A stretch of DNA of 64,000 nt from a virus, in the IMG/VR virus record IMGVR_UViG_3300027741_000001; one strand, 5' to 3'. Positions within the stretch are counted from its first letter, which is position 1, and each line of letters opens with the position of its first letter. The notes under the pieces were generated by a model that searched no databases, was not told the origin of the DNA, and saw only the letters and a list, made by a program, of their open reading frames with translations. A program made the position numbers and the translations under genes. Below are positions 6,001 to 45,030 of the stretch, in pieces.

Positions 6001-9000
6001 TTCCATTGTAAGAAGCATTTTCTATAGCTTCAGGAGCTACCGAAGTTTTAGGTAAAGCTTTACTTCTATTAGAAATAATATTTCTGATCTCATACTCATT
6101 TTGAGTGTGGAATACATTATCTAAGGAATATGACTCTTTAGAGTCGTTGATGTTTACAATTTCAGGATTTTTATTTCCATCAAGCCTGAGTTGATATCCC
6201 CACTCAATAAAGTCTGTTTTATCCCTAAAAGCTGTAGGATTAGGCTTTTTAAATACTTGTAGCGTTATCTTTTTAAGATTTCCATCACTATCAACAACAA
6301 CTAGATCATCTCCCTTGTTGATTATTTTACCGTCGGCACCCCTGTGTATAGGGTTAACCTCGGCACCATTACCTGAAGAGTAATTATCTATATATTTTTC
6401 AAAATTATCTAAATAATCTGTACTAGACATTATCTTTTTAAAAGCTATTTCTAGATCTACATAACGAATAAAGTCATCTATATCTTCAGGGTTTAAAATC
6501 TTTGCTAGCTGATTAACCTTATCGTTTGCATCTTTTTTAGCAGCATCAGGATCTTCAGTTCTTTTACTTCTGTGGATGAAATCATAGACTTTTTTAATAG
6601 CATTGAACAGTCTGTAACCGTCTTCACGAGAGATCTTGTCTGGAGTCTCTTCCGAGGTAGGCTCTTTTACAACTTCTGGCTTAGGCTCAACCGGTTTAGC
6701 CTTAATAGCTTTTTCAATATCTTTTTTGTCTTTAGGGCTAAAAGCATTGAGCTTAGTAAGCATATTGAAGTTATATGTAGTTTCTTTCCCGTTAGGACCT
6801 CTTACGGTTAGCTGAACAACTCTACCTAGAGTATCTTTCTTAACTACAACTCCAAGAGCATAACCATCTGGACCATAGATAGTCCACCCAACGTCTACTT
6901 TTTCTGCTAGATATTGCTTAGCTGTTTCCTTGGTTATTTGAGTTGGGCCAAGATCTTTAGGAGTTTCTACTGAAGTTACAGGAGTCGCGACAGGTTTTTC
7001 CGGCTTCTCTTCAACGGGCTCTTCTGGCTTTTCTTCAGCAGATTTAGCAGTTTCTGCCTCTGCCTTAGCTTTCTCATCCCACTTTCTCTGTACTTCAGCC
7101 ATCTTAGCTTCTTGAACTGGAGCAGTAGCGTCTTCATCCATTTTTGGATCAGTGCTGGTTGGCTTGAAAGCATCGTAGATCATTTTAGGGACGTCAATCA
7201 TGCCGCCTTTTTCATCTACGTAAAGGAAGTACTTAATAGGCCCCCAGATATTTTCTGATTGACCTTTGACAAAGTCGACGTCTTTAAGATTTTGACTCTT
7301 GCGCCTACCAATAGCAAATCTGCTGTAAAGTTCACGGTAGGTCATTACTTCGCCATTCCAGCGAACTTTTTTGTCTAGGTGGGCTTTAATTTTACCTAAT
7401 TGCATTGGAGATAGAGCATCAAAGTCTAGAACTCCGCCAGCGGTCTCAATAACATTTTTCTTAGGCTCTTCTGTAGGCTCAGCTGCTGGCTCTTCTACAA
7501 CTTCAGGCTCATTTACAACTTCTTCAACGTCAGACTCAGAGATGCCATCTTCTACTTCTATATCCCTAAAGAGGTTGTCAAAGTTGAAGTCTAGAGGATC
7601 GGTTGGTTTGCCGGCACCTTCCTTCATACCCTTATTAGTTAGTACATTGAGCTGCTTCATTGCATCGACAAGTTCAGCTATTCTCTTAGCAATAGCTTTT
7701 TTCTCATTTTCATCTGTTGAAGAACTTCTAGTGTTGTTTAAAATATCCTTATAATCGCTAAGTTTTTCATGCAACATTACAACAGGATACGGGCTAAGCT
7801 CTTGCTTCAAACGCTTAGCTTCGCGTTTCATGTTCTTGCCTCGTTTAGCGGCTAGATACTTTCTGTAAAGCTGGCCAACTTCAGTCCAAGCATCTATATT
7901 AGCCTGACGTTCTTCCTCGGTAAGTTCCTTAGGTTCTTCTTCTACCTTAGTTTCGGCTACAGGTTCAGTAGCAGGCTTAACGTTCTGGTTCTCGTCAGAG
8001 TAGCGAGCTAGGCCGGTTATTCCACCAAACTTAGCCAAAAACTCTTCATCATTAACAAAGACATTATCGTAATACCCGCCCTGTGCACGGTTAGGTTCTT
8101 TAATTTCAAAAACTCTATTTCCGTTTTCATCGGTCTTAACGGATACAACTTGTGCATAGAAGTTAGGACTAGTTTCTTCGCTTTTAGTTCCCTTCCATCT
8201 AGTAGTTGGAGGGAAGTGCCCACCATACATTAGGTAGTCGCCAGATTGAATTTGATCTAAAGATTCTAAAGGAATGTATTCGGATGTGTAAGGGTTGTTA
8301 TTTCCACCATTTTCAGCTATTGCATTAGCCACCATTTTTCTGGCTTCTTCTACAGCTTTTTTCCAAACTTCCGGATCATTAATATCTCCTGGAACCTCGG
8401 CATTTCTATAGTCAATAAGTCTACGTCTAGACATATCTTCTCGCCATTTGTTATTTAATAAGCTTATTCTCCAACCAGCAACTCTTCCCTTTTTGTTGTA
8501 GCTATTAGGCTCGATCGCTTCTTCGTAATAGATCTCTGCTCCATAGCGAAGTCCATCTTTTGCACGAACGTCGGGATAGTCTGCTTCGTGCTGGAATCCT
8601 TCTCCATTTATTACATATTTAGCGTAAGGTTCTCCCGCACCTGCGGGGAACATTTGAACATCATCCGGTAGAGGGAAGTTATGCTCGCCAGTTATTTCTT
8701 TTGATTCGGTTGTAGGAGTGGTTTCTTCTTCAACAGGCTGTTCTTTTTCATCCTCATCATTTAATTTAAAGAATTTAAAACCATACTTATTTTCTAGTTC
8801 TTTTTCATTATCAAGTCTTCTTTGAAGTTCTTCTTTAGCTAGATTTTCATCTTTATAAGCATCTATCATATCCCCAATGTGCGCTGCACTTCTTTCAGAT
8901 GACCCTAGCATAATTTCATATTCGCCCCAGTTAGTTTGCTTAACAAAGTATTTTCCAACTAGATCTTTAAACTCAGGATCCATATCACCCTCTAGACCAA

Positions 9001-12000
9001 CATCTAGAGTTACTTTTTCTATTTTTCCGCGATTAATTAGATATATAGTATCTCCACGCTTTGGCTTATGGCCATCAGCTGTAACACCTTCAGTAGCATC
9101 TCTACGTGCAGGATCTTTCCAAATCTGATATTGCTGAGCTAACCACTGCTTAGCTTTTGCTATAAGTTCAGGATCTTTATAGTACCCATAAAGATCTGCC
9201 CCTCTCCAATAACCGTCTTTGTCTTGGAATTTTACAGAGATGTGATCTCTAGGGTAGTCAGTACTTCCCCAGTATCTAATCTCTCCCCAGAATTCAGCAC
9301 CTTTCTTTGGAACTGCCATATTTCCGCTACCATTGCGAGGCCTAGCCATATTCCAACCAAGAGCAATTTGACCATACTTATCTTTTTCCCAGTCAGCTGC
9401 AACATCTTGTAGATCTACAAAACTGTCATCAATTTTTTCTGGCTCGTTGGCAGGAGTAGGTGCGGCAGCTGGAGCATTTATGTTTCTATATCTCTTAGCA
9501 AGTTCAACGTAAGATTGATTTATAAGATTCTCTAGAGCTGACTTGTCATTCTCATCGCCATCAACTTCAAAAGTTGCAACTACGTTACCCTTTGGATCTA
9601 GAATGGTGGCGGTCCACTTACCATCCTTGTTAGATATGACAGCTCCAAATGGAGGTTTTTTCAGCCGATCTATTTTTTCAGTTTTAGCTGCTTTCCATTT
9701 TCCAGTCTTAGGATCTTTTAGAGCTCTCCAAATGTAGTCATCTCCAACTTTTCTAAAGAAGTGCGGGAATGTGCCTGGAAGTTCACCGTTGTTATATTCT
9801 TCATTTCTTCTTGCAAGAGCTTTTGTAGCGAACTCAAATGCTTTTCTAAAAGTTTCTTCCTCGCTACGTTCTAATTCAAAATCTAATAATTCTGCAGGAC
9901 CGTAACCATCTCCATCGATGGTGCCGTCCCAGTTTCGCCACTGAATTTCTGTGTATTTTTGATCTAGAGATCCATCAGCTTTTCTTGTAAAAGTAATCTT
10001 TATACGAGCCCCTGGAGCGCTAAAGTCTTTGTTGTGCCAAATAACTACTGCTTTTTTACCAGCAGCAAATTTTGAAGGATCTTCGTAAGGTAATGCACCT
10101 TCTTCTCCTTCTTCGCCATCCTCTTCGCGGTTTTGAGAAGGCTTGTCGCGGTTGTCTTGCTCTTCGATCTCAAAGCCCTTTTCAATAAGCTTTTTCTCGT
10201 CGATTTCAGCAGGGAATTCTGGCTTAGGATGTACCATCGGCACATAGCCTTTTTCTGCATAGCCCTTAGGGTCAATCTTTCCCTTGCCGATAGGGTCTTC
10301 TCTTGTTACTTCTGGTTCTGGAGTTTCGGTAGATTCTTTTTTACCAAGGTTAGCGTCAATAATGTCTTGTACAGCTTTAACAACTTCATCCCAGTTTCCT
10401 CTTAGGCTACTTCCTTCACGTTTTTCGACATGCTTGATTTCACCAGGTTTTAGATTTTTATCTAAAAGGTCTAGAAGTTCTTCGTAATCAATACCTTCTT
10501 TTCTTCCATAACCATGCACATCCAGGTATGGAGCTAAGATATCTTTTATAAGACCTCCCACTACATCGGTTTTTTCACCTAGTGGGTCTACAGCTTCAAT
10601 TCTTTCTTTTAAAAGTTCTTTTATGCGATCAAGAGCATCGAGTTGTCTTTTCCTGTAACCTGGATCTAAGAATTCTTTTACTTCATCTAAAACTTGCTTT
10701 AATTTATCTGAATACATGCCTTCATGTACTGCTCCAAGGTTTTCTTTTAGATGCCTAATTAGTCCTTTATAATCTTTAATGTCTAGCTTTATAATTTCTT
10801 GTACAATTTCATACGCCTCTTGAGCGATTTGATCAGCCCTTTGCTTTGGATCCTGATTAGGATCAATTCTTTTGCCAAGGTTTATTGCTATCCTAAGGAC
10901 AGCTTCAATGATTGATTCATAAAGAAGTTTTCTTTCTGGACCGTATATTTCAGTAGTAGATTCAGCTGGGGTCTTGACTCCATTTAAGAAGTCTTTTGCA
11001 TGAGCAATTATGGAATACTGGTCACCGTTTCCAGGCAAAATCTTCTCATTTAAATACTCCGCTAATCTCTGATATTTAGATACAGGTACGCCTAAATTAT
11101 GAATTTCTTCAATAATTTCATCAACTTCAAGTCGTATTTTATCCTCAAGTTCAAGGTCAAAATCCTCCCAGCGGCCACTAGATTTATATAAAGCATTACG
11201 GATCGCGGCCCTCAATAAAATAATAAAAACTTCATCAAATGAATCGTTATTTCTGCGTCTACCTCCACCACCACCGCCGCCATTACCGCCACGTCCACCT
11301 CTACCGCCGCCGTTACCTTCTCCGCCTCTGTTGTTACCATTGCCACTACCCTCTCCACCCTGATTCTCATTTTCAGGTGTAGGTGCAGGAACGTTTGACT
11401 TAGAAGAAGTTAGTACTTTTTTGAAGGTTCCAACTGGAACAACTTCGTGCTTGACTTCACCGTCTTTGCCTACATAAACAACAACTCGGTCACTAGACTT
11501 TTTAACATCAGGAACGCCGATGCCATGCTCAAAAACGTTTACAACGTTAGCTGGGCCATCCGGACTTTCGTAAACCATTCCAGGTTTGAGATCTTCAGCC
11601 TTTACTGCATCTGCGTTAGAAGAATCAAGTTTTCCTGGCAAAGGATAAATAAAGTCTGGACCGTCGCCAGGTACAAAGTTAGCTCCTGCTTTAGTAACAT
11701 AAATTATTCCATTTTTGTGTACAACATACTCATCTAAACCTTTTGGAAATACATCTCCAGGTTTATAATCTTTACCTTCTACCCAGTAGTGCCAGTTCCC
11801 GTGTCTATCTTGACGTATTACTACAACTTTACCGTGAAGATTTCCATCCTTGTCATATACAATATCTCCAGGTTTGACATCTTCAGGCTTCTTTACATCT
11901 GGAGTTCTAGCTTTTCCGCCTCGTGGAGTAGTAGTTTTTTTACCTTTACCTTTTTCTTCTTTTTTAGGGGGGTTTACTCTTTCAGAGTTTGCAGTCCAAT

Positions 12001-35017: not shown

Positions 35018-35209
35018 TTTGTACCTTCCGTATAAGTAGAGAAAGTTCTCTAACTAAATCTAAGCATATAATAATCTCCCAGGTCAGTCGGTATCTAAAT
35101 CCTGGTGTGTCTAGCTGTCCCTGGTTATTTATTTTAGATCCTGGCACCAGGTCGCACCTGGTAAAGATAAACCCCCGGTATCTCTACCAGGGGATTATCG
35201 GCAACCGGA

Positions 35210-35389: not shown

Positions 35390-35478
35390 TTTTTCTCATT
35401 TCCGCTAGGTGATTTTTCCTAACTAATAAAACTTTACCAGTTCCAGCTGGGAATAGTCAAGTATGTAGCAAATAAAAA

Positions 35479-35506
35479 TAAGCAGTTTAGACACTTGCTC
35501 AGGTGT
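35479..35506 (-). ncRNA. 28-nt pseudoknot motif, copy 1 of 7-8 (others 37385-37412, 37676-37703, 38329-38356, 40566-40593, 43173-43200, 44279-44306, degenerate 44443-44471)
   Basis: NNAC-C-YRARY-AA-GUNN-NUAAA(CU/AG)-GYUYA with compensatory changes in both stems. Confidence 0.7.
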
Positions 35507-35512
35507 TTAGAA

Positions 35513-35707
35513 TTATTCGTGATCGTCATAATCAGGTTCAGGTGGCTCAAAGGTTATAGTGTTCTCGGCATCACACTCATCACAGATTACAATTTTTTCA
35601 CCATCTCCCCTAGAAACTGTTTGCTCGCTGTCCTCGTTCTCATACTCACACTTCTCACAAGTGAAAGATACTGATACTGATACTTCATCATCTCCGTATT
35701 CAAACAT
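35513..35707 (-). CDS. Small acidic Zn-ribbon protein (paralog of 38504-38716)
   Basis: VSVSFxCxKC...CxEC. Confidence 0.75.
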   Translation of the reverse strand: MFEYGDDEVSVSVSFTCEKCEYENEDSEQTVSRGDGEKIVICDECDAENTITFEPPEPDYDDHE

Positions 35708-35982
35708 TTTACATCTCCATTTTCCGTTAGGTCGTTTGCCTAACTAATCCAACTTTAGCATCTCCGTATAGAAATAGTCAAATAAATAAATAATTTTTTT
35801 GCGTGTTTCTATTTTCTAAATCTTTTCCTGATCCAAAAAGTTCCGTGAGTTCGGCAGAATACTTTGTGCCTACAAGGAACTAAAACTAATATTCCGTAAT
35901 CTTTTGGTTCTTGGATTAGTCCTAATGCGAACTGTTCCGCTTGTTCAGCGTCAGCTGGTTTCTCTATAAACATAACCCCCCC

Positions 35983-36180
35983 CTAATCTATCTTGGGATA
36001 GTAAGGGGTTGGGTCATAGCAACTCTCGCAATAACCAGTCTTGTCATTAGCCGTATAGCGTTCGGTATCTATCAGGGGATTAGTAGCCGTAATAAGTTCA
36101 TCACAACTAGGGCAAACTTCGTTAGTTGCTGATAGTCCAACAATTTTAGCAACCTTGTTGATGTCTAGAAAGTTTTCCAT
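35983..36180 (-). CDS. Small Zn-finger protein, similar to C-terminus of 40669-40950
   Basis: CPxC...NPLIDxERY...GYCxxCYDPTP; start at MENFL. Confidence 0.7.
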   Translation of the reverse strand: MENFLDINKVAKIVGLSATNEVCPSCDELITATNPLIDTERYTANDKTGYCESCYDPTPYYPKID

Positions 36181-36331
36181 TTTTCTCATTTCTGTTCGGC
36201 AACTTGCCTAACTAATAAAACTCTATCACCGCAAGTTTTATTCCGTCAAGTATCTAAGTATTTTATTTTGGCGTGTCTAGGTAAAACTAAACCCCTGCCT
36301 GAGCTTCGGCAAGGGTTCAGTTTCACGATCT

Positions 36332-36610
36332 CTATAAGGCTCGTAAGGCTTCTACAAGGCTAGGGTATTGTCCGTATTCACTAATAGTTTCTATGCCTGT
36401 ATCGGTGACTAGCCTGATAGTAAAAACCTTAGTGTCCTGCTGGTAGTTCCATTCGCTAGTTACAAACTTTAGACCCTGTTCAGTTTCTTTCAGGCTTGAC
36501 CAAAAAATAGTTGATTTGAAAAACTCCAGTGTTGATTTAGAAAACCACTCTTTATTATCGGCAACAATTTTTTGCCAAACTGGACTTGACTTGGTGACTT
36601 GTAGTTTCAT
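36332..36610 (-). CDS. Early hypothetical protein
   Basis: Own promoter cassette and terminator. Confidence 0.75.
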   Translation of the reverse strand: MKLQVTKSSPVWQKIVADNKEWFSKSTLEFFKSTIFWSSLKETEQGLKFVTSEWNYQQDTKVFTIRLVTDTGIETISEYGQYPSLVEALRAL

Positions 36611-36755
36611 TTTTCTACTTTCTTTATTTTGATTAGGCGATTACCTAACTACTAAAATCCTAGATCACTTATCGGCATTTAGTCAAGATTATTCTGGCGT
36701 GTCCAAAAATAAAAAACCCCTAGCCTTTCGGCTAAGGGCTTTCTACTCTCGGGGC

Positions 36756-37034
36756 TTAGTCCTGCTTAGTCAAGTCCAGAACTAACTCGGCAGACATATC
36801 GCCAGTCCAAACTATCTCAATGTCATCGTGACTGTCTATGTAATCTTGGTCAGGGTATCCAGTAAAATCGTGTCCAATAATCTCGTTATCTTCTCTAACC
36901 TGATCCATAGCATCATCTTCATCTTCGGCAAAAACAGTTCCCATTAGTTCAATGTTCCTGAGTTCGCAATCTCTGTCATAGCCGAAAGGGTAAATTTCAA
37001 TCCACCAATAAACTCGATATTCTTTCTTTTCCAT
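36756..37034 (-). CDS. Early acidic hypothetical protein
   Basis: Own promoter cassette and terminator. Confidence 0.75.
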   Translation of the reverse strand: MEKKEYRVYWWIEIYPFGYDRDCELRNIELMGTVFAEDEDDAMDQVREDNEIIGHDFTGYPDQDYIDSHDDIEIVWTGDMSAELVLDLTKQD

Positions 37035-37708
37035 TTTTTACTCCGTAACTGCTAGGCACTTCACCTAACTACTTCAACTTTATCAGTCCCGAATGGAAAT
37101 AAGCAAGCGTGTCGGTATTTATTTTTTGGATCTCTAGAAATCTCTCTAAGACTTCTTTACCCTGACCATACGCTTTAGTCTTAGGTTCAGCTCAAAGGGA
37201 ATTAGACCGGCAAGCATAGCCCTATAAAGTAAGTCATAGGTTCTAAACCTGTCTAGTCTGTCCAGCTCGGCAACTCGTTCTGGCGTGAATTTAGTTCTTC
37301 TCATTTTGCCTCCTTTGTAGTTAGTCATTACATAAATAATAACTTCTAATCGGCATAAAAAATTCCCGATCTCTAAAAAATAAATGAACCTTTTAGACAC
37401 TTGTTCAGGTGTGTTCGGCAGAGGGGAAATGAAAGAAACCCTCTCCCAAGTCTATTTACGCCTATTACGCTTTCTAATAAATCTAGGAAGCTCGGCAACT
37501 GCTAGTAGCAACGCTACAAACAATAGCAGAAATGCCAAAGTAAATCCAATCTCAAATGCTCGCTGATTATTGTCGGCTATAAATCCATAATAGATACCGC
37601 AACCAGCAGACCATAAACCTAATACTGCCAAAAATGTTTTCACAACTTCACCGCAACTTTCTATTAGTTTTTAGTTGAGCCTTTTTAGAACTTGCTCAGG
37701 TTCGGCAC

Positions 37709-37936
37709 TTACTTTACTTTCTCGCCAATTGCGATCAGTAATTCAGTTGGAGAAACTTCCAGCTCACGACATAGCACCGCCAAAGTATTTGACGGAATGT
37801 GTCGTTGATTATGAAAGTATCGGCTAAGGCTAGACTTCTGTAAGCCTGTTGCGATAGCGAATTGGTTTAGAGATTTGTATCCCTGTTGCTCGTAGCGAGC
37901 AATAAACCAAGTCCAAGTATCAACTTTTTTTCCCAT
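37709..37936 (-). CDS. XRE-family HTH protein
   Basis: SLNQFAIATGLQKSSLSRY...P...L..LC..L.VSP.EL. Confidence 0.8.
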   Translation of the reverse strand: MGKKVDTWTWFIARYEQQGYKSLNQFAIATGLQKSSLSRYFHNQRHIPSNTLAVLCRELEVSPTELLIAIGEKVK

Positions 37937-38503
37937 TTTTTCACCTCTTTTCGTCTTGATGTATTCAGTTTAGTTGCTGTTTGGAAACTTTGTCAAGTTT
38001 ATCCGCATTTTATTTTTTGGCGTTTCTACGATCTCTTGACTTGGTATCAAGCTTGTTCGCATACCAACTAAGTCGGTGTCCTGTATTCATTAGCACTCCG
38101 CTAATACTTCTAAGACTTCTAGCAATTTTATTTAGCATTATCTAATCTCTCTTTATCGGTGTTCCCCTGTAATACAGCATAGCGTTCTGCTCGCCACTCT
38201 TTACACTCTCGGCACTCTTGTTTATGTGTGTTCTCACCAATGTATTTTACTTCCGTAAGCTTGCCACAAGACCAGCAGGCGATCTTAGATTTTCTATCTT
38301 TCACTTTTGCCTTTCCAAAGATTTAGGTTGAGCCTTTTAGACACTTGCTCGGGTGTTGTTGCTAGTTAGTGCTGTTCACATCCACAGCAGTTATCGCAAG
38401 CGATAGGGTTGCTGTTTGCGCAAACACAGAATATATCCAGTTCTGTTTCGCATTTAGGGCAAAGTGCTATCTGTCCTGTTGTAGTTCTGATAAACTCGTC
38501 CAT

Positions 38504-38716
38504 TTAGTCATCACCAAAACTAACGCTGTTGTTCTCGCCACACTCGGCACACTCAACATCAACATCTCCCGACCTGCCACCAACTACAACTTCTACGCTG
38601 TCGTTCTCAACTTCACACTTGCCACACTCAAAGCTGACGCTAATCTCTCGTTCATTATCCCAAGGGGTAGCAGTTCTCCAACCATCATAACCGCCACCAA
38701 TGTCGTATCCACTCAT
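38504..38716 (-). CDS. Small acidic Zn-ribbon protein
   Basis: CGKC...CAEC; paralog of 35513-35707. Confidence 0.75.
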   Translation of the reverse strand: MSGYDIGGGYDGWRTATPWDNEREISVSFECGKCEVENDSVEVVVGGRSGDVDVECAECGENNSVSFGDD

Positions 38717-38896
38717 TTTTATCTCCGTATCTGTTAGGCGATTTACCTAACTACTCCAAGATTACTATCTCCGTATAGAAATAGTCAAGTATTTAGATTA
38801 TTTATTTTTCGGTGTGTCGCAAGTTTCACCAGATCGTCTTTTTTCGGGCAAAGCTAAACCCCCTAACCATTTAGGCTAAGGGGTTCGGCTTACTTC

Positions 38897-39370
38897 CTAG
38901 ATACTCATAACTCCGTATGTTCCAATAACTAGGGATAGAACAATGGCGTAAGGTCCTAGTGGAACGCTAGTTCCAGCCTTAGCCTTACGAATAACCACCC
39001 GATAGAGCGTTGCGACAATGCCAGCAATAAGGCTTACAGCAACCAATACCACCGGCAACCACCAGACAAACCAGCCGATTACTAGGGAACTACCAAAGAA
39101 TAACTTGATGTCCCCCATACCTAATAAGTCATAGTAGTTAGCAAACATACCAGCAATACCGATACCAAACGCAACTGCCAAAGCTAATCCTAATCTCCAC
39201 CACTCTCCACCAGCGAAACTAGCAACTAAGTCGGCAACCAAACTCATAACGATAAATGGCAGGATAATCTTGTTCGGTAGTCGGTGTTCTCTAATGTCTA
39301 TGACGATTAGGGGAATAGCAACGATAGCCAGATAAACCAATGGCATTACAGCGATAAGTGTTGTGTTCAT
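38897..39370 (-). CDS. Prepilin peptidase (A24)-like membrane aspartic protease
   Basis: IDIREHRLPN, GMGDIKL, VPLGPY. Confidence 0.85.
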   Translation of the reverse strand: MNTTLIAVMPLVYLAIVAIPLIVIDIREHRLPNKIILPFIVMSLVADLVASFAGGEWWRLGLALAVAFGIGIAGMFANYYDLLGMGDIKLFFGSSLVIGWFVWWLPVVLVAVSLIAGIVATLYRVVIRKAKAGTSVPLGPYAIVLSLVIGTYGVMSI

Positions 39371-39456
39371 TTGAGTTCCTTACTCTCATTTAGGTTAGGC
39401 GATTACCTAACTACTCTCAACTTTACTAAACCTGTTCGGGAATAGTCAAGTTATTT

Positions 39457-39741
39457 TTAGGCGTGTTTTACTAAATAAACAATGGCAATGTATTCATCAG
39501 CATAGGTCGCAACATTATCGGTAAATGTCCAGTTGCGAGCTTTATCTATGTCTAACCACGAAAGTTTGCCGGTGCTATCTTTTAGGGCAACGCTGTTAGT
39601 TTGTAGTTTCCCTATCGTTCTGACCTGATCTAGAAACTTATGAGGTTTTTCCTCACCTGTCTTTATGTCTAGGTATTTGATAATCGTTAGGGTTGTATCA
39701 GGCTTGGCTAATACTCTTTTGAACTCGGCAAGTGTTTTCAT
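39457..39741 (-). CDS. Hypothetical protein
   Basis: ORF track; AGGAG RBS. Confidence 0.7.
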   Translation of the reverse strand: MKTLAEFKRVLAKPDTTLTIIKYLDIKTGEEKPHKFLDQVRTIGKLQTNSVALKDSTGKLSWLDIDKARNWTFTDNVATYADEYIAIVYLVKHA

Positions 39742-39783
39742 TAGTTCTCCTTTTTTAGTTGTGTTCTAACTTTACCAGCTTGG

Positions 39784-40032
39784 CTAGTCTAAGCCAAACT
39801 CTTTTCTAAACTTAACAATGTCTAATCTAGTTTCGGTAATCATCTCACCTAGTTCATTAGACTTTATTGTCGCCTGTTCTAGCTGTGATAATAGCCTGTC
39901 TAGAAACGCTAAGTCTTTATTCGGTGTTGTCTTTACCTGCTCGGTAATACCTTCCAATAGAGATAATAACCCTGCTCGTCTAGATTTTAGATCTAGTAAT
40001 CTCTGTTGTAGTTGTTCTAGTTGCTCGTTCAT
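39784..40032 (-). CDS. Coiled-coil hypothetical protein
   Basis: ORF track. Confidence 0.65.
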   Translation of the reverse strand: MNEQLEQLQQRLLDLKSRRAGLLSLLEGITEQVKTTPNKDLAFLDRLLSQLEQATIKSNELGEMITETRLDIVKFRKEFGLD

Positions 40033-40099
40033 TTTTATTTTCCCTTGTTAGTGATAAAGGTGATAACCCTTTTGGATTACCACCTTTATCGGTGTAGTT

Positions 40100-40456
40100 C
40101 TAACTTACCTTATCGGCATACGCTAACGCAAACTGCTCGGCAGTATAAGTTTCTCCGTCATACTGAACTGAACCTGTATCGGCATTTACAACAACGACAG
40201 GATTATCGTCAAAGGTGTCGCTAGGCTCTGCCTTTATTGCTCTAATGCCGAAACTCAACTCTCCGTTGTAGTTTCCTAACTTTGCGTATTCATAGAATAG
40301 CTGTGCTGTTAGATAAGACGGGTCGCCTATTCTGCCCGTTCTGTCCAATACATTACCAACTGCCTTAGCGTTGTCTGTGCCTGACCAATGCCCATAAAGT
40401 TCTATGGCTGTATCAAACTGCTCGCTTGTGATGTGGATAGTTGCTCTATCGCCCAT
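40100..40456 (-). CDS. Phage hypothetical protein (MGDRA...LYGHWSG type)
   Basis: ORF track; AGGAG RBS; own promoter. Confidence 0.75.
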   Translation of the reverse strand: MGDRATIHITSEQFDTAIELYGHWSGTDNAKAVGNVLDRTGRIGDPSYLTAQLFYEYAKLGNYNGELSFGIRAIKAEPSDTFDDNPVVVVNADTGSVQYDGETYTAEQFALAYADKVS

Positions 40457-40668
40457 TTTTGTTTCTCCTTTTTCGGTGGTTTATTTTTTTTGGTGCTAAC
40501 TAATCTAACCACAACTACCTAAGATTAGTCAAGCTTATTTTCCGGTATGTTCCCTAAATAAAAAATAAGCCTTTTATACACTTGCTTAGGTGTGGAGCAA
40601 GGGAGAAATGAGAGAAACCCTTGCTCGTTGGCAGTAGTGTTAGGGGGGACTAACTGCCAAGCTTGTTT

Positions 40669-40950
40669 TTAGTCTGGTGTCGGGTCATAGCAATTATCGC
40701 AATAACCGATTTTGTCGCTTACAGCATAGCGTTCAGCGTCAATGAGTGGATTATTCTCGTCTATCTGTGCCTTACACAACGGACATCTCTCAACAACTTC
40801 ATTATTGTTGATAAGCATTTCTAGATCGTGTAAAGCTTGTTCGGCACTAATCTCCTTGGAGTAGTAGTCGTTGTAAATAGCCTTTACTGCTTTCTGCTCA
40901 ACTTCGTTCATTTCCATTTTCTGCTCCTTGTTTTTCGGTGGTAGTTCCAC
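40669..40950 (-). CDS. Hypothetical protein with C-terminal Zn finger
   Basis: CPLC...CDNC. Confidence 0.65.
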   Translation of the reverse strand: MELPPKNKEQKMEMNEVEQKAVKAIYNDYYSKEISAEQALHDLEMLINNNEVVERCPLCKAQIDENNPLIDAERYAVSDKIGYCDNCYDPTPD

Positions 40951-41552
40951 TTTACTCGGCTTGATTACTTTTTGTCAAGTTTTCTTTTAGATTAGAAATC
41001 TTGTCTGCTGTCCAAGGGCTATGATTACACTCGCAATGTGGTTTTACCCACTCCCTAGCAATACCGGCAGGGTCGTTGAAACAAGTATCATCTATGTCAT
41101 CTTGGAAACAACGGAGCATAAAGTCGGTGGTCTTTCCACACACTCCACAGCAATACTCAATAACTTCAAGCTTGTGTCCTATGTGGTTGCTTAGGTAGTC
41201 ATTGAAATAGAAACTTTTTGGATCACTAAAATCGCCTTTCGGCTTTCCCTGTTCGGTCATTTTTTCTTTGCTTTCTTGATAGTTAGTTTTACTTCTACGC
41301 TGTAAAAGCGTTCTACAACTTCCCTTGCTGTTTCCCAATAGCCTAAGTCTATGGCGGTTTCTCGGTGAGTTCTAACTAACTCGTCTGCTAGGCGTTCTAG
41401 TAGTTCATCATTGGTTAGGTGTTTTACATACTTGGTCATTTTTCTACTTTCATTTTCGGTGGTATCTCTACCTTACCACTTTTCTCGGTAAAAAGTAAAT
41501 CCCCTAATCCAAACTCTCGGTTCGGTTTATTAGGGGATCGCTTTTTTAGTTC

Positions 41553-41855
41553 TTAGACAAGCTTTATGTATTCGTATTCGGTTGTTCTTAGGCACTCGTC
41601 AAACGCAACAGGGAACTTCTCTTTCATCAAGGCACGATCAAAACTTGTGTTCTTTCCTGCCTGTAAAACATACGAACCCTGTCCAGCAACAACTCCACGC
41701 TTGGCACCATTTAGAGCCTGTGCCAAGATTTCGGTAGCCTGTGCCTTTTGTGTTTCTAGTTCTGCCATTTGGAGCTTGATAGTTTTTAGCAGGGCATAAG
41801 CTTCTTTTGCTTTTTTGCTTGTGATTTTTACTTCTTGTGGTTCTTGATTTTCCAT
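41553..41855 (-). CDS. Hypothetical phage protein
   Basis: ORF track; own TTGACT promoter. Confidence 0.7.
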   Translation of the reverse strand: MENQEPQEVKITSKKAKEAYALLKTIKLQMAELETQKAQATEILAQALNGAKRGVVAGQGSYVLQAGKNTSFDRALMKEKFPVAFDECLRTTEYEYIKLV

Positions 41856-41969
41856 TTATTTACTTCCTTAGTTCTGTGCCGATTTCGGCTATTGGAACTT
41901 CCAATACTTCTAACTTAGTCTTTTCTCTAATCTAAGTCAAGTTTATTTTCATTTATTTTTTCGGTGTGT

Positions 41970-42239
41970 CTAACTATTTTCTAAATAGCTTTGATACTGC
42001 TCTGTTCTTTCTATTACCCTGATCAGTTTTTTATTGTTGGTTAGGGTAGCAAAATCCATTAGACACTCGGCTCGGTTGTAATACTTTTTTGTTTTTATCC
42101 AAGCTCCGTTTAGTGTTCGGTAAGTCAGGCTTGCTCTAATCTCTGCTCCATACTCGGCAGAATAAGTAAGCTCTAACTTTGTCTTAGCGTTCTCTATTTT
42201 CCAGATCGCTATTCTTGATAGTTCGTAATCAACTTTCAC
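41970..42239 (-). CDS. Hypothetical protein
   Basis: GTGA overlap with upstream gene. Confidence 0.6.
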   Translation of the reverse strand: MKVDYELSRIAIWKIENAKTKLELTYSAEYGAEIRASLTYRTLNGAWIKTKKYYNRAECLMDFATLTNNKKLIRVIERTEQYQSYLENS

Positions 42240-42619
42240 TTGGTTTCCCCTTTTTTCATCTCGGCTTTTTCTAGTCTAGTAGCCGATACTAAAACCTGAA
42301 TTTTGTTTCCGTCTGCCAAGCTTAGTCCTAAGCAGTTTCCGTTAGTATCAGTTCCACCTGTAAGGATTACATTACCAACGATTATGTCCGTAGCTCCAAA
42401 ATAATAATTCCAAATAGCAGTTGCTCTGTGGTTGTAAGGTAGTCCGTCTAGTTTGCCTTCCTCGTTTGTCCACATAGTCATAGTTGGCGATAATCTAACG
42501 ATCTCTAAATAACCGCCAACGACTTCCTTGATAACTTCGTATTCGGTTTCGGCAGTAAAGCTCACAACTTCTAGTTCCCCTGCTGTCTTGATAATTAGGG
42601 CTTGCTTTTGATTTTCCAT
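42236..42619 (-). CDS. DUF3846-like protein
   Basis: VGGYLE...NEEGKL.GLP.N.RAT...D.IVG. Confidence 0.8.
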   Translation of the reverse strand: MENQKQALIIKTAGELEVVSFTAETEYEVIKEVVGGYLEIVRLSPTMTMWTNEEGKLDGLPYNHRATAIWNYYFGATDIIVGNVILTGGTDTNGNCLGLSLADGNKIQVLVSATRLEKAEMKKGETK

Positions 42620-42733
42620 TTTTTTCCTTTTTGTCGGGATAGTTCCATTGTTCCAAATAGGTATCGGTAAGTCAAGTATTTCGGCAAAAAAAAATTCGCC
42701 AAGTTTTTAGCCTGACGAATTCTTTTCGGTTGC

Positions 42734-43141
42734 CTAATCTCTGGTCAAATCCTCAATAGTGTCGGCTGGTGGCTCTGTGTGGCTACTAGGTTTCGCTGTT
42801 CTGCTGAAAGTGCTGTTGCCATAGGTCAAGTCGTGTCCAATTGTTTCTGCTTCTATCTCAACGCTTGTTCCTGCTCGTTCGCCATTGTCCCAATCACGAA
42901 CACGCAACTTACCTGAAACGATTACACGATCGCCTTTGCTAACACTTGTAGCAACATTTACCGCTAATGTTCTAAACGCAGTAATGGTGAACCAATTTGT
43001 GTCGCTATCAACCCAACGATTTTGTGTTCTATCCCAACGCCTGATACTACTTGCTAGACGGAAACTTGTAATCTCTAATCCGTCTTGCGTTACTATGTGG
43101 CGTGGTGTTGTTGCTACTAGCCCTGTTGTTATGTATTCCAT
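42734..43141 (-). CDS. ssb: Single-stranded DNA-binding protein (actinobacterial type)
   Basis: SFRLAS..RRWD...W.D.DTNWF...LA.N...S.SKGDRVIV.G.L...EIEA..IGHDL. Confidence 0.9.
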   Translation of the reverse strand: MEYITTGLVATTPRHIVTQDGLEITSFRLASSIRRWDRTQNRWVDSDTNWFTITAFRTLAVNVATSVSKGDRVIVSGKLRVRDWDNGERAGTSVEIEAETIGHDLTYGNSTFSRTAKPSSHTEPPADTIEDLTRD

Positions 43142-43237
43142 TTTATTCCTTTGTTATCGGTGGTTTTTTTGGTAAGCAGTTTAGATACTTGCTTAGGTAT
43201 TTAGGCGTTTGCCTATGGTCTTAGTTTAGTGGTTTCA

Positions 43238-43756
43238 CTAACAAATCTCAAATCCACCACTATCGGTTAGAAACTCGGCAAACTCTTTTATGTCATCAAG
43301 CTCCAAATCGTAGTTAGTTTCCCAACTATCTTTCTTGCCCTCGCCATTACAACCATTACACCAACCCTTTTCTCTACCTAAGAGAATAGCCAAATCCGGT
43401 GCTAATTCACGATCAGACATTTTGTTCTCAACGCCAACCTTGTCGGTTCTAATACCTGTGCCTTGACACCACTCGCAATTTTCTCTTGGCAAAAGTGATA
43501 AGTGTATGTTTCTTGCTTTTACATAAGTGCTTGCTGTTCCGTCAGACAAATCTTTTACAAGCAAGCGAGCAAGCTCCACGCTGTCGTTAGCGTCAAGTCC
43601 ATCACCATCGTTAGTGTGTCCGTTCTTTACCTTGCCAGCAAGGTCTGTGTGTCGGTCTAGGCAGTAGTCCCATAGTGGTCGCCAGCCCCATACATTTCTA
43701 CGGAAGTAAGTTCCCTTTTCGCTTTTTGGATTTTTTCCATAAACATCCATACCCAT
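43238..43756 (-). CDS. Phage protein with CxxCxGxG Zn-finger insert
   Basis: MGMDVYG..YFRRNVWGW; CEWCQGTG, CNGCNGEG. Confidence 0.75.
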   Translation of the reverse strand: MGMDVYGKNPKSEKGTYFRRNVWGWRPLWDYCLDRHTDLAGKVKNGHTNDGDGLDANDSVELARLLVKDLSDGTASTYVKARNIHLSLLPRENCEWCQGTGIRTDKVGVENKMSDRELAPDLAILLGREKGWCNGCNGEGKKDSWETNYDLELDDIKEFAEFLTDSGGFEIC

Positions 43757-43953
43757 TTTTGATTTCCTTTCAGTCGGGTTATGTTTCCAAATTACCAGCT
43801 AATCAGATACAAGTCAAGTTTCTTTACAAAACTTTTCGTGGATTTTCCAAAACAAGTTATCAACTCCACGCCACCACCAGAAGTAATACCACCGATTAGC
43901 GTGAGCATACATTTTACAAACTAGGGGTCTGCCCTTACAGATTTCGCAGTTGA

Positions 43954-44253
43954 TCACTTATCAAGCTTTATCTTGTAGTGGTTCGGCACTAGGTCATTTA
44001 GGTCAAACATAAACTCTAAGCTGTCGTATTGGTCTAGGTTCTCGTCAAGCCACTCCTCAAAATCCGGTGTGTATTTGATGTTGGTGATTAGCCAATAGCC
44101 CTCGTCAATTTCCATTTGACACCATTGTTCAGTTCCTCGCCACTCAAACCAAATCTGTCTGCCAGCGTTTTCTAGCCAAGCTCCCTCAACTTTTGTAATG
44201 ACTACATCAGGGATAAAGTTGTTGTCCTCGTTGGCGTATAGATCGTATTTCAT
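43954..44253 (-). CDS. Hypothetical protein
   Basis: ORF track; AAGGA RBS. Confidence 0.7.
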   Translation of the reverse strand: MKYDLYANEDNNFIPDVVITKVEGAWLENAGRQIWFEWRGTEQWCQMEIDEGYWLITNIKYTPDFEEWLDENLDQYDSLEFMFDLNDLVPNHYKIKLDK

Positions 44254-44604
44254 AGATTTCCTTTTCTAAGAAGTTAGGTGAGCAGTTTATCAACTTACTC
44301 AGGTTTAGCATTTTTTTCTTTTAGGGAGAGAGAATAAAATACAAAAAAAGAAAACCGGATAGTTATTACCATCAACTCCAATAGGGCTACAATTTTTAGG
44401 TCTGGAAGTCAAGACCCTTAGTTTTTTCTCTTGCTAAGGAACAAGCGTAGTTTAGCGACATACATTGGTCGGATTTCACTAGGTTTTCAGGGTAGTAATC
44501 CCCATACCACCAACACTTGTTCCTGAACGGACACCTCTGGTTCTCCACCTAAAACTAAGACTTCTAGGTTTAGGTTTCGGTATGCCTAGCAAAAGTTTAT
44601 TTAG

Positions 44605-45030
44605 TTATTCCTCATAAGGATTATAGTCCTGTTCGGGCGATAACTCAAATCTAAAACTAGCTCCGTATTCATCGTGGCTTGATCGGGTAATTACCATTTC
44701 CTTTTCAGGCGTAATCTCAACCCTTAGCGTGTAATCGCCATTTATGGCAAGAGCTTTTAGTAAGTCCTTAGCAGGAACTTCTGTCCAACCACTCGTGTTG
44801 TCCCAATTCATTTTCTCGCCAACAACTCTGATGATCGTGTCCTCGTCCCAACCCTTACTGTTCAGGTATGGCATTAGAAACTCGTCTGTGAAGTATTGCT
44901 TATCGTCCTCAAAACAACCGAAACACTCGTCACTCCAAGTCATTTCGCCTGTTGTTTCGTCCTCAACCTCGCAAGAGCAAGTGTTAGACATTTTCATTTC
45001 TGTTGCCTGTGGTTCAGTTTCTTTATCCAT
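44605..45030 (-). CDS. Acidic hypothetical protein
   Basis: ORF track; GAAAGGA RBS. Confidence 0.7.
   Translation of the reverse strand: MDKETEPQATEMKMSNTCSCEVEDETTGEMTWSDECFGCFEDDKQYFTDEFLMPYLNSKGWDEDTIIRVVGEKMNWDNTSGWTEVPAKDLLKALAINGDYTLRVEITPEKEMVITRSSHDEYGASFRFELSPEQDYNPYEE

Follow-up and report, generated by a model that had tools for sequence, protein, structure and literature searches.

Coremin, or xrRNA-C, is an Xrn1-resistant RNA of numerous RNA viruses, beny- and cucumoviruses among them (Dilweg et al. 2019, PMC6546385; 2023, PMC10520033). Its first hairpin, hp1, has 3-5 bp and closes its loop with a C-G pair, where U-A is tolerated and G-C abolishes function, and the loop follows the consensus YGAD (4 nt) or YGNNAD (6 nt), with loops of 4-8 nt being functional (Dilweg et al., PMC6546385/PMC10520033). 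The spacer GUUAAACUAC is conserved, A16-A20 being essential (Dilweg et al., PMC6546385/PMC10520033), and a second hairpin, hp2, of at least 4 bp is needed directly after the spacer for Xrn1 resistance (Dilweg et al., PMC6546385/PMC10520033/PMC10321173). Both Xrn1 and scanning ribosomes are halted by coremin, which in vitro also induces -1 frameshifting. The block by a flaviviral xrRNA extends to bacterial RNase J1, so such blocks are not enzyme-specific. Two further comparisons are offered by xrRNA-WCC, represented by Sanxia picorna-like virus 5 and the hits of a screen (Dilweg et al. 2023, PMC10321173), and by the -1 frameshift pseudoknots of BWYV and PLRV (Su et al. 1999, as cited in PMC10321173).

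The 28-nt motif described here is carried by a freshwater actinophage, in a window of 64,000 nt (the whole stretch of DNA that was analysed). The minus strand is the coding strand for all genes within 35-45 kb, and on this transcribed strand seven clean copies and one degenerate copy, each of 28 nt, were located between 35479 and 44471, where the first-pass annotation had placed them. In each copy, positions 1-4 and 13-16 form stem 1, with C4-G13 as its closing pair, C5-U6 make up loop 1, positions 7-10 and 24-27 form stem 2, A11-A12 is the junction, and a 7-nt loop, N-U-A-A-A-C-U, spans stem 1. The copies are given below in this order of segments, with the E values of a covariance model that was built from copies from other genomes together with these eight.

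35479..35506, minus strand: PK1, ACAC-CU-GAGC-AA-GUGU-CUAAACU-GCUU(A), E 8.9e-11; 6 nt past the stop of gene 35513-35707, then UUUUUAUUU and a promoter at 35460-35431
37385..37412, minus strand: PK2, ACAC-CU-GAAC-AA-GUGU-CUAAAAG-GUUC(A), E 1.8e-6; hairpin 37444-37420 on the 5' side, UUUAUUUUUU on the 3' side
37676..37703, minus strand: PK3, GAAC-CU-GAGC-AA-GUUC-UAAAAAG-GCUC(A), E 1.0e-6; 5 nt past the stop of the HTH regulator gene 37709-37936, with GTG at 37643 coming 32 nt later
38329..38356, minus strand: PK4, ACAC-CC-GAGC-AA-GUGU-CUAAAAG-GCUC(A), E 9.1e-8; 9 nt past the stop of gene 38366-38503, with GTG at 38304 coming 24 nt later
40566..40593, minus strand: PK5, ACAC-CU-AAGC-AA-GUGU-AUAAAAG-GCUU(A), E 2.5e-8; preceded by gene 40669-40926 and two hairpins, followed by UUUUUUAUUU and a CUUGACU promoter box
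43173..43200, minus strand: PK6, AUAC-CU-AAGC-AA-GUAU-CUAAACU-GCUU(A), E 2.5e-9; gene 43238-43756 upstream, SSB gene 42734-43141 downstream, with the SSB ATG 31 nt away
44279..44306, minus strand: PK7, AAAC-CU-GAGU-AA-GUUG-AUAAACU-GCUC(A), E 2.7e-8; in a leader, with ATG at 44253, 25 nt downstream
44444..44471, minus strand: PK8, degenerate, CGAC-CA-AUGU-AU-GUCG-CUAAACU-ACGC(U), E 8e-4; 133 nt past gene 44605-45030, with a promoter-like TTGACT just downstream

The annotated variants of stem 1 (ACAC/GUGU, GAAC/GUUC, AUAC/GUAU, AAC/GUU and CGAC/GUCG) and of stem 2 (UGAGC/GCUCA, UGAAC/GUUCA, UAAGC/GCUUA and UGAGU/GCUCA) were all recovered, and C5, A11A12 and UAAA were likewise constant across the window copies, the sole exception being AU at positions 11-12 of PK8. 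Stem 1 of PK7 has 3 bp, and U in place of C10 gives a U-G pair; PK8 retains the whole of stem 1 and keeps three of the four pairs of stem 2, plus a possible A11-U23 pair. The annotation was also right that some copies precede U tracts and others an RBS: U tracts lie 3' of PK1, PK2 and PK5, and a ribosome-binding region and start codon are found 24-32 nt beyond PK3, PK4, PK6 and PK7. Run on the 113.7 kb genome, the covariance model gave E values of 9e-11 to 2e-6 for the seven clean copies and of 8e-4 for the degenerate one; its single further match was weak (E 0.002) and lay outside the window. The transcripts that carry the copies are presumably early, judging from the repeated TTGACT-N18-TAAAGT promoters and the content of small genes, SSB and HTH.

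The assignment to an H-type pseudoknot is solid, because all eight pairs of both stems covary and mutual information ranks them first. Among 120 distinct copies, changes on both sides were seen at 8/8 pairs, which bears out the annotated view that compensatory changes indicate an RNA structure. Paired cells amounted to 96.4% against 78.6% in shuffles, and the covariation score was 0.496 against 0.169, a value reached by 0/500 shuffles, while sliding the partner columns by 1-3 lowered pairing to 25-50%. The top column pairs by mutual information were the proposed pairs 2-15, 3-14, 8-26, 7-27 and 1-16, and the positions left unconstrained by the scan pattern (2, 7, 15 and 27) covary near-perfectly in 122 pattern hits. 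Stem 2 had been annotated with five pairs; the four of 7-10 with 24-27 stand, but the fifth, U6-A28, does not, being U-A in only 100 of the 188 copies of the wider family. Nested folding is weak (-2 to -7 kcal/mol, z mostly above -2), and plain hairpin stability therefore fails to account for conservation of the motif. Additionally, position 12 covaries with pair 3-14, which suggests a base triple.

Much of the coremin consensus recurs within this knot. The pair at 4-13 is C-G in 116, G-C in 3 and U-A in 1 of the 120 copies, in agreement with the closing pair of coremin, and the Y, A and D of the coremin loop correspond to C5 (120/120), A11 (120/120) and a last nucleotide that is A, U or G (119/120); the second loop nucleotide, however, is U in 113/120 phage copies and not G. 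In the phage motif the loop invariably has 8 nt, four of them paired (225 hits versus 28 in shuffles), with other lengths at background. As for AAACU, which mutagenesis proved essential in coremin, A19-A21 are invariant and C22 and U23 occur together in 105/120 copies, and in phage and viral motifs alike 3 nt separate it from the 3-bp stem core. The A-C that follows AAACU in coremin becomes G-C in the phage motif, where it opens stem 2, and PK8 holds the full AAACUAC, its CUAAACUAC being the coremin spacer from position U14 on. Unlike in coremin, the inner four loop nucleotides pair with the sequence after AAACU, which makes the phage motif a true H-type pseudoknot, and four extra Watson-Crick pairs are present instead of hp2: a hairpin of at least 4 bp starts at positions 28-31 in 45/149 copies, versus 43.6 +/- 5.3 in shuffles. 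Both motifs commonly lie a few nucleotides past the last stop codon, are multi-copy and have no dedicated protein, but the carriers here are DNA phages of bacterial hosts. We infer that it may be a Watson-Crick-extended version of the coremin/xrRNA-C fold, with a shared three-dimensional fold.

The likeness to xrRNA-WCC lies in a stem 2 that is canonical and antiparallel and joins the hp1 loop to the spacer (GAG/CUC in nature, GAGC/GCUC in the phage), in a loop 1 of 1-2 nt, and in long-loop adenosines that have been proposed to dock in the minor groove of stem 1. The stem 2 of xrRNA-WCC, however, has 3 bp (loop nucleotides 6-8 with spacer nucleotides 18-20) and uses the C-U of AAACU, the loop is 4 nt with G as loop 1, and hp2 is still needed for Xrn1 resistance, whereas the phage stem 2 covaries, has 4 bp, lies one step further 3', after C-U, and comes with an extra A-A junction.

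With the luteoviral frameshift pseudoknots the motif shares a size of ~28 nt, the H-type topology, a short loop 1 in which a C is conserved, a 7-nt loop rich in A that crosses stem 1, and the distance, 5-7 nt being their spacer from the A-site codon. BWYV pseudoknots do not stall Xrn1. Given these matches in size, topology and spacer, and the frameshifting driven by coremin, the motif could be a recoding signal that stimulates read-through or frameshifting at the upstream gene end. We regard this as highly improbable, since the phage motif is intergenic, without a slippery site or an extended frame: no slippery heptamer was found 5' of the window copies, where stops precede the knot instead (tandem in-frame UAA-UUC-UAA in the case of PK1). 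Also, loop 3 contains a conserved UAA, ribosome-binding sites and start codons downstream are independent, the frame relation shifts with a spacer of 5, 6 or 7 nt, and U tracts, promoters or tRNAs come after many copies.

At least 116 IMG/VR contigs carry the motif according to an exact pattern scan, and single contigs have as many as 9 copies; the scan also gave 27 loci in bacterial genomes from many phyla. Cultured phages with the motif span four host phyla (Arthrobacter, Clostridium, Roseobacter/Lentibacter and crAss-like phages) and include the 40-kb roseophage SIO1. The copies have 188 different flanks, in which no conservation was seen, and 80 clusters of genes upstream and 35 downstream; the neighbourhoods are enriched for DNA and nucleotide metabolism, with replication and nucleotide-metabolism genes of many kinds. 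Because carriers, flanks and upstream genes are so diverse, no dedicated partner for the motif is evident. Zero copies were found in the sister phage DSL-LC01, whose terminase large subunit is 77% identical, and the motif is thus dispensable. The same copies recur in a close relative and are absent from a more distant one, small accessory genes lie next to copies, and the motif is spread over unrelated phages, which would suit a DNA-level element, namely a folded single-strand recombination or priming site marking exchangeable gene cassettes. Such an element seems very doubtful, as the orientation is always that of transcription, G-U outnumbers A-C by 21:7 (3:1) in copies with exactly one non-Watson-Crick pair, the consensus agrees with that of an RNA motif already characterised in RNA viruses, and no associated recombinase was seen.

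The annotation could not assign the motif to a known family, and this holds for the Rfam 15 catalogue, in which no hit was obtained at the gathering threshold or at E<=10. The preQ1-I riboswitch aptamer (RF00522) resembles it in being a tiny pseudoknot of the H type whose 3' loop is rich in A, and in occurring before both terminators and ribosome-binding sites, but the phage motif has no RF00522 match (E<=10) and no queuosine or preQ1 gene context, differs in stem and loop lengths, and is multi-copy and linked to upstream stop codons. More generally, the phage motif might bind a protein or small molecule, serving as an operator of translation, a site of antitermination or a tiny aptamer of the preQ1-I or SAM-II type. 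Unpaired nucleotides that never vary and a pseudoknot shared by many phyla fit the profile of sophisticated RNAs (Weinberg et al.), U-tract and RBS-adjacent contexts both occur as in riboswitch expression platforms, and the possible base triple at position 12 and the enriched gene neighbourhoods point the same way. Nevertheless, we think a binding site rather unlikely. The flanking genes are diverse and copies numerous on single contigs, the motif is positioned by the upstream stop and not by the downstream RBS, no Rfam riboswitch matches, no shared phage protein is apparent among SIO1, Amigo, phiCT19406B, crAss cr7_1 and the window phage, and the conserved nucleotides are those required by the ligand-free coremin fold.

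The motif is intergenic and oriented with the genes, only 12/178 copies lying inside a same-strand open frame of at least 100 codons, versus 72% of random 28-mers on either strand. In 74/123 cases the motif starts 5-7 nt beyond the stop codon upstream, and distances below 5 nt hardly ever occur, in contrast to a variable downstream context; 5-7 nt is the spacing at which a structure abuts the mRNA entry of the ribosome, as in -1 frameshift spacers. The first-pass annotation had grouped the copies by what they precede, but the wider set ties the motif to the upstream stop codon instead. A U tract directly follows 32/149 copies (3/8 in the window). PK1, PK2 and PK5 fill the slot where neighbouring transcription units of the phage carry ordinary GC hairpin terminators; an intrinsic terminator is a GC-rich hairpin with a U tract right behind it, and a terminator scan called none of the motif copies. 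Several copies are 1-6 nt 5' of a tRNA, tRNA adjacency being found in 5/178 copies. Some copies sit within tRNA arrays, with 1-6 nt spacers, as though in a tRNA slot.

Phage hammerhead and twister ribozymes are similarly intergenic, co-oriented and multi-copy. By analogy with these ribozymes in phage replication modules, and given the copies in tRNA arrays, the motif could be an RNA processing site, either a new, very small self-cleaving motif or a guide for a universal endonuclease such as RNase P at gene boundaries. This appears quite improbable: 28 nt is far under the size of every known self-cleaving class, no conserved flank could hold a cleavage site, tRNA adjacency is rare, and 16 multi-copy loci compared with Rfam yielded only tRNAs and one DUF805b match, none overlapping the motif, and no ribozyme family.

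The tie to the upstream gene end suits a 3'-end function at least as well as a roadblock. As a 3'-end element of the upstream cistron, the knot would block 3'-5' exonucleases (PNPase, RNase II/R) after termination or downstream cleavage, would serve with a U tract as an intrinsic terminator hairpin, and would protect the preceding gene, not the RNA downstream. The tight stop spacing, the terminator slot of PK1, PK2 and PK5 before a U tract and the next promoter, and the U tracts elsewhere all agree with this, and RNase P cleavage at tRNAs 1-6 nt downstream would leave the knot at a 3' end. We still consider it unlikely: most copies have no U tract, an ordinary GC hairpin would suffice without 10 invariant nucleotides across phyla, no coremin-type RNA is known to resist 3'-5' enzymes, and stem 2, toward the 3' end, has just 4 bp.

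Among the roles listed by the annotation, an exonuclease block appears the best supported, because the motif matches the mutation-defined consensus of the coremin Xrn1-resistant RNA (PMC6546385, PMC10520033, PMC10321173). RNase J (TIGR00649) was not found in the motif-carrying Chryseobacterium and Capnocytophaga genomes, and the target can therefore not be a 5'-3' exonuclease in every case. Moreover, with a U tract after about one-fifth of the copies and a promoter after others, little downstream RNA is left to protect. Our preferred reading, which we hold with about even confidence, is that the motif acts on its own in polycistronic phage mRNA, as a mechanical roadblock or boundary element, since it resembles a plant-virus element that halts RNA-degrading enzymes and ribosomes. 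Both this activity and the enzyme that is blocked are inferred. Each copy would be transcribed within the polycistronic early mRNA, fold unaided into a compact H-type pseudoknot and, needing no protein, resist unwinding by RNA-tracking enzymes, for which the candidates are RNase J as a 5'-3' exonuclease in hosts that possess it, scanning endonucleases, and ribosomes. Phages would site the knot as near the preceding stop codon as a terminating ribosome allows, and there it would keep the decay and the translation of adjacent cistrons apart; where a U tract follows, it would also be the terminal structure of the transcript. Whatever its role, the motif of the window is not peculiar to one phage, as unrelated phage contigs with this knot number well over a hundred.

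The short RNA repeat described in the first-pass annotation as a covarying H-type pseudoknot is confirmed as such, since all eight of its pairs show two-sided changes among 120 distinct copies (stem 1, positions 1-4 with 13-16; stem 2, positions 7-10 with 24-27). Among the pattern hits, position 2, which was unconstrained, pairs with position 15 as G-C, C-G or A-U, and positions 7 and 27 pair as G-C, A-U or U-A, nearly without exception. Copies in the same loci that were not selected by the pattern vary at every pair, with UUUC/GAAA, CGCC/GGCG, UGUG/CACA and CGUC/GACG in stem 1 and GGGU/ACCC, GGCC/GGCC and GAAC/GUUC in stem 2. In the alignment of the 120 distinct copies 96.4% of cells are paired, a percentage that is raised by the filter of at least 7/8 pairs applied to copies beyond the pattern hits, whereas the compensatory counts are not. 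None of 500 shuffles and no slid register approached the observed pairing, and the proposed pairs rank top in mutual information. Copies with a single non-Watson-Crick pair have G-U rather than A-C at 21:7, an excess that fits folding of the transcribed strand. Nested folding yields only -2 to -7 kcal/mol. A competing nested hairpin, in which stem 2 of CU variants would be extended by G13-C22 and U14-A21, was rejected because A21 is invariant, yet position 14 changes with position 3.

Position 12 tracks pair 3-14 (A12 with A3-U14 in 94 copies, U12 with U3-A14 in 13, about 13 exceptions; mutual information 0.33), which suggests a base triple; the window copies have A12 with A3-U14 throughout, except for the degenerate copy, which has U12. 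The fifth stem-2 pair originally proposed, U6-A28, is not conserved in the wider set. An extra A11-U23 pair would be plausible by analogy with A7-U19 of coremin, the Xrn1-stalling RNA of plant viruses, but both columns vary too little for covariation to bear on it.

The genome holding the window is that of a 113.7-kb phage with 41% GC, and DSL-LC01, a phage of freshwater Actinomycetia, has a large terminase 77% identical to the one encoded here. Every gene between 35 and 45 kb is small and on the minus strand (including SSB, an HTH regulator and a RecE-like fragment), and these genes form short transcription units, each starting with a promoter-like TTGACT-N18-TAAAGT site. The seven 28-nt copies (PK1-PK7) and the degenerate eighth (PK8) lie on the gene strand at exactly the coordinates first assigned, and the listed stem variants and conserved loop nucleotides were correct on recheck. 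A covariance model run over the 113.7-kb genome recovers the seven copies at E ≤2e-6 and the eighth at 8e-4; the sole further match is weak (E 0.002) and lies outside the window.

Knot copies in the window (35479-44471, minus strand)
PK1, PK3 and PK4, minus strand: start 6, 5 and 9 nt after upstream stops, respectively
PK2, PK5 and PK6, minus strand: preceded by one or two hairpins
PK7, minus strand: in a leader
PK8, minus strand: end of a long 3' region

The hairpins immediately 5' of PK2 and PK5 (37420-37444 and 40595-40660, minus strand) share a near-identical 13-nt loop, UUUCU(U/C)UCAUUUC, on differing stems, and the same hairpin-plus-knot module is present in a relative, L080. Two further repeats accompany the early genes. 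Seven copies of a leader hairpin, varying in the loop and at some stem positions, lie between the promoter-like sites and the early-gene RBSs, and a conserved GACAC(G/A)CC box with an A-rich stretch is found 15-30 nt 5' of most early promoters, right after the preceding terminator; the box is possibly an UP-like element or else a site for a regulator. The phage also encodes giant polyvalent proteins. ArdC-N, MPTase-PolyVal, UvrD-helicase and DEDD exonuclease domains are carried by two giant ORFs, which are virion cargo of the polyvalent-protein-like kind and bear no relation to the knot.

Other features of the window
39394-39412, 38733-38752, 37051-37070, 36632-36650, 36194-36213, 35726-35745, 35404-35424, minus strand: leader hairpin AGUUAGG-loop-CCUAAC
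41963-41969, 39460-39466, 38811-38817, 36696-36702, 36270-36276, 35800-35806, 35104-35110, minus strand: GACAC(G/A)CC box
2-14914, minus strand: giant ORF, >4,971 aa
15356-25054, minus strand: giant ORF, 3,232 aa

An exact-pattern scan of IMG/VR, with positions 7, 15, 17, 22 and 23 left free, placed the motif in at least 116 contigs. The identical pattern occurs at 27 loci in bacterial genomes, with carriers including Chryseobacterium, Capnocytophaga, Alistipes, Clostridium tetani, Eubacterium, Ruminococcus, a Nostoc plasmid, Patescibacteria and Omnitrophica, and these copies presumably sit in prophages. Cultured carriers include the Arthrobacter phage Amigo group, roseophage SIO1 and Lentibacter phages, Clostridium phages phiCT19406B and phiCTC2B, and the crAss-like phages cr7_1 and cr124_1. 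In Amigo the knot separates the SSB gene from a tRNA-Gly, and in SIO1 it follows the RNR gene. None of 5,426 E. coli genomes had a copy, the sister phage DSL-LC01 has none in a 41-kb locus or in its whole record, and the 10-kb region had no megablast match among cultured phages. Many contigs carry multiple co-oriented copies, with a maximum of nine within 6 kb, and conservation stops sharply at motif positions 1 and 28. A length variant with a 9-nt loop (three copies), AGC-AGAAUGCGA-GCU-GCUAAACUU-CUCGCU, has a loop GCGA able to pair with a downstream UCGC; the family may therefore include length variants that a 28-nt scan misses.

The first-pass annotation could not assign the repeat to a known family, and in Rfam neither the window at the gathering threshold nor the region at E ≤10 gave a match at any copy. 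Sixteen multi-copy loci matched tRNAs and one DUF805b only, and no report of the phage motif was found in the literature searched. The family is large and widespread, and has no Rfam entry. Readings of the knot as a riboswitch, operator, ribozyme, recoding signal or DNA-level element are less likely. A boxA-like reading (GCUC plus a U-rich flank) was discarded because the flank is not conserved, and anti-SD mimicry by CACCU because the common GACCU variant does not fit.

The knot is intergenic and avoids coding sequence: a same-strand open frame of at least 100 codons holds 12 of 178 copies, compared with 72% for random 28-mers on either strand. In 123 cases an upstream ORF of 50 codons or more ends close by, and the spacer from its stop codon, mostly UAA, to position 1 is 5 nt in 32 of them, 6 nt in 29 and 7 nt in 13, and almost never less than 5 nt. 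This tie to the upstream gene end keeps a 3'-end role for the knot in play as the main rival explanation, as do the copies that precede U tracts (32/149). An SD-like sequence lies within 25 nt downstream in 38/149 copies, and some copies are followed by a promoter-like -10 box or by a tRNA at 1-6 nt. In the window, PK1, PK2 and PK5 occupy slots where other transcription units have ordinary terminators.

Neighboring genes are diverse, the majority coming from replication and nucleotide-metabolism modules (RNR, glutaredoxin, SSB, primase-helicase, nuclease, DUF932). DUF932 (phrog_1221) is the commonest single family ending just 5' of the knot, with 13 cases that fall into two clusters. Another recurrent arrangement, as in relatives of roseophage SIO1, pairs a class II RNR gene with a glutaredoxin gene behind it. 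In several unrelated phages the knot lies within or heads a tRNA array, 1-6 nt 5' of a tRNA and 1-4 nt after the previous one, where processing would free an RNA of about 30 nt. Adjacency to tRNAs was rejected as a general rule, as it holds for just 5 of 178 copies.

Example loci
L124:3093-4193, L031:1766-2905, L018:5319-6248: IMG/VR loci, DUF932 and RNR-glutaredoxin examples
L023:256-764, L033:9126-9473, L006:7859-7968, L038:5912-6017, L146:2501-2610 (the last in Arthrobacter phage Amigo): knot at tRNA arrays

The closest parallel is coremin, which is carried by RNA viruses of plants, fungi and invertebrates, stalls both Xrn1 and scanning ribosomes, and also causes -1 frameshifting. It is numbered G2-U3-C4 [C5-G6-A7-A8] G9-A10-C11, followed by G12-U13-U14-A15-A16-A17-C18-U19-A20-C21 and the hairpin hp2 (Dilweg 2019, PMC6546385). 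Coremin needs a C-G loop-closing pair, and the phage motif has C4-G13 in 116/120 copies; its first loop nucleotide is Y, its penultimate A and its last D (not C), corresponding to an invariant C5, an invariant A11 and A, U or G at position 12 in 119/120. AAACU is essential in coremin and the preceding U-U replaceable; in the phages N17 is variable, A19-A21 are invariant and C22-U23 is present in 105/120. In both, 3 nt separate the 3-bp stem core from AAACU. Coremin functions with loops of 4-8 nt (PMC10520033), and the phage loop is fixed at 8 nt. A natural Watson-Crick type of coremin has a GAG/CUC stem 2 formed by loop-spacer pairing (PMC10321173). On sequence, the phage motif resembles a coremin whose loop has gained four Watson-Crick pairs (GAGC/GCUC), inserted after the Y and ahead of the A-D. 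Unlike coremin, it lacks hp2 and has U as second loop nucleotide, which makes it a variant rather than a member. Hairpins of the hp2 type are not enriched downstream of the phage copies, and classical coremin with 4-7 nt loops is no more frequent than background in the phage loci.

We infer the function of the knot from this match, which is detailed and purely comparative. A self-contained fold that is unusually hard to unwind would act as a roadblock. Such a fold would account for the conservation of 28 nt in phages of unrelated hosts without an obvious common partner protein, for the avoidance of coding sequence, and for the minimum stop distance of about 5 nt, the point at which termination would require the ribosome to melt the knot. 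Bacterial RNase J1 is also blocked by a flaviviral xrRNA, indicating that such blocks are mechanical and not enzyme-specific. In hosts belonging to the Actinobacteria, Firmicutes and alpha-proteobacteria, RNase J would be a plausible enzyme for the knot to stop. A search of two Bacteroidota genomes that carry the motif did not find RNase J, and C. tetani was scored only in part; as a universal target the enzyme was rejected, so ribosomes, scanning RNase E/G and 3'-5' exonucleases have to be considered.

To our knowledge, structured RNAs that physically halt processive enzymes are known solely from eukaryotic RNA viruses. The 28-nt knot with its coremin core could be the first class of exonuclease- and ribosome-resistant RNA in bacterial viruses, a universal, protein-free cistron insulator in DNA phages of at least four to five bacterial phyla, a proposal that we regard as tentative and somewhat short of an even chance. 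If it is true, one tiny RNA fold has been reused, or invented repeatedly, across virus realms. A structure of the 28-nt Watson-Crick version could show what the coremin fold, as yet unsolved, looks like, and the knot could serve as a compact insulator or stabilizer in synthetic operons. A bacterial-virus counterpart would connect the RNA structures of phages and eukaryotic viruses, and would raise the testable question of how phages control, without proteins, both the decay and the translation of their polycistronic messages.
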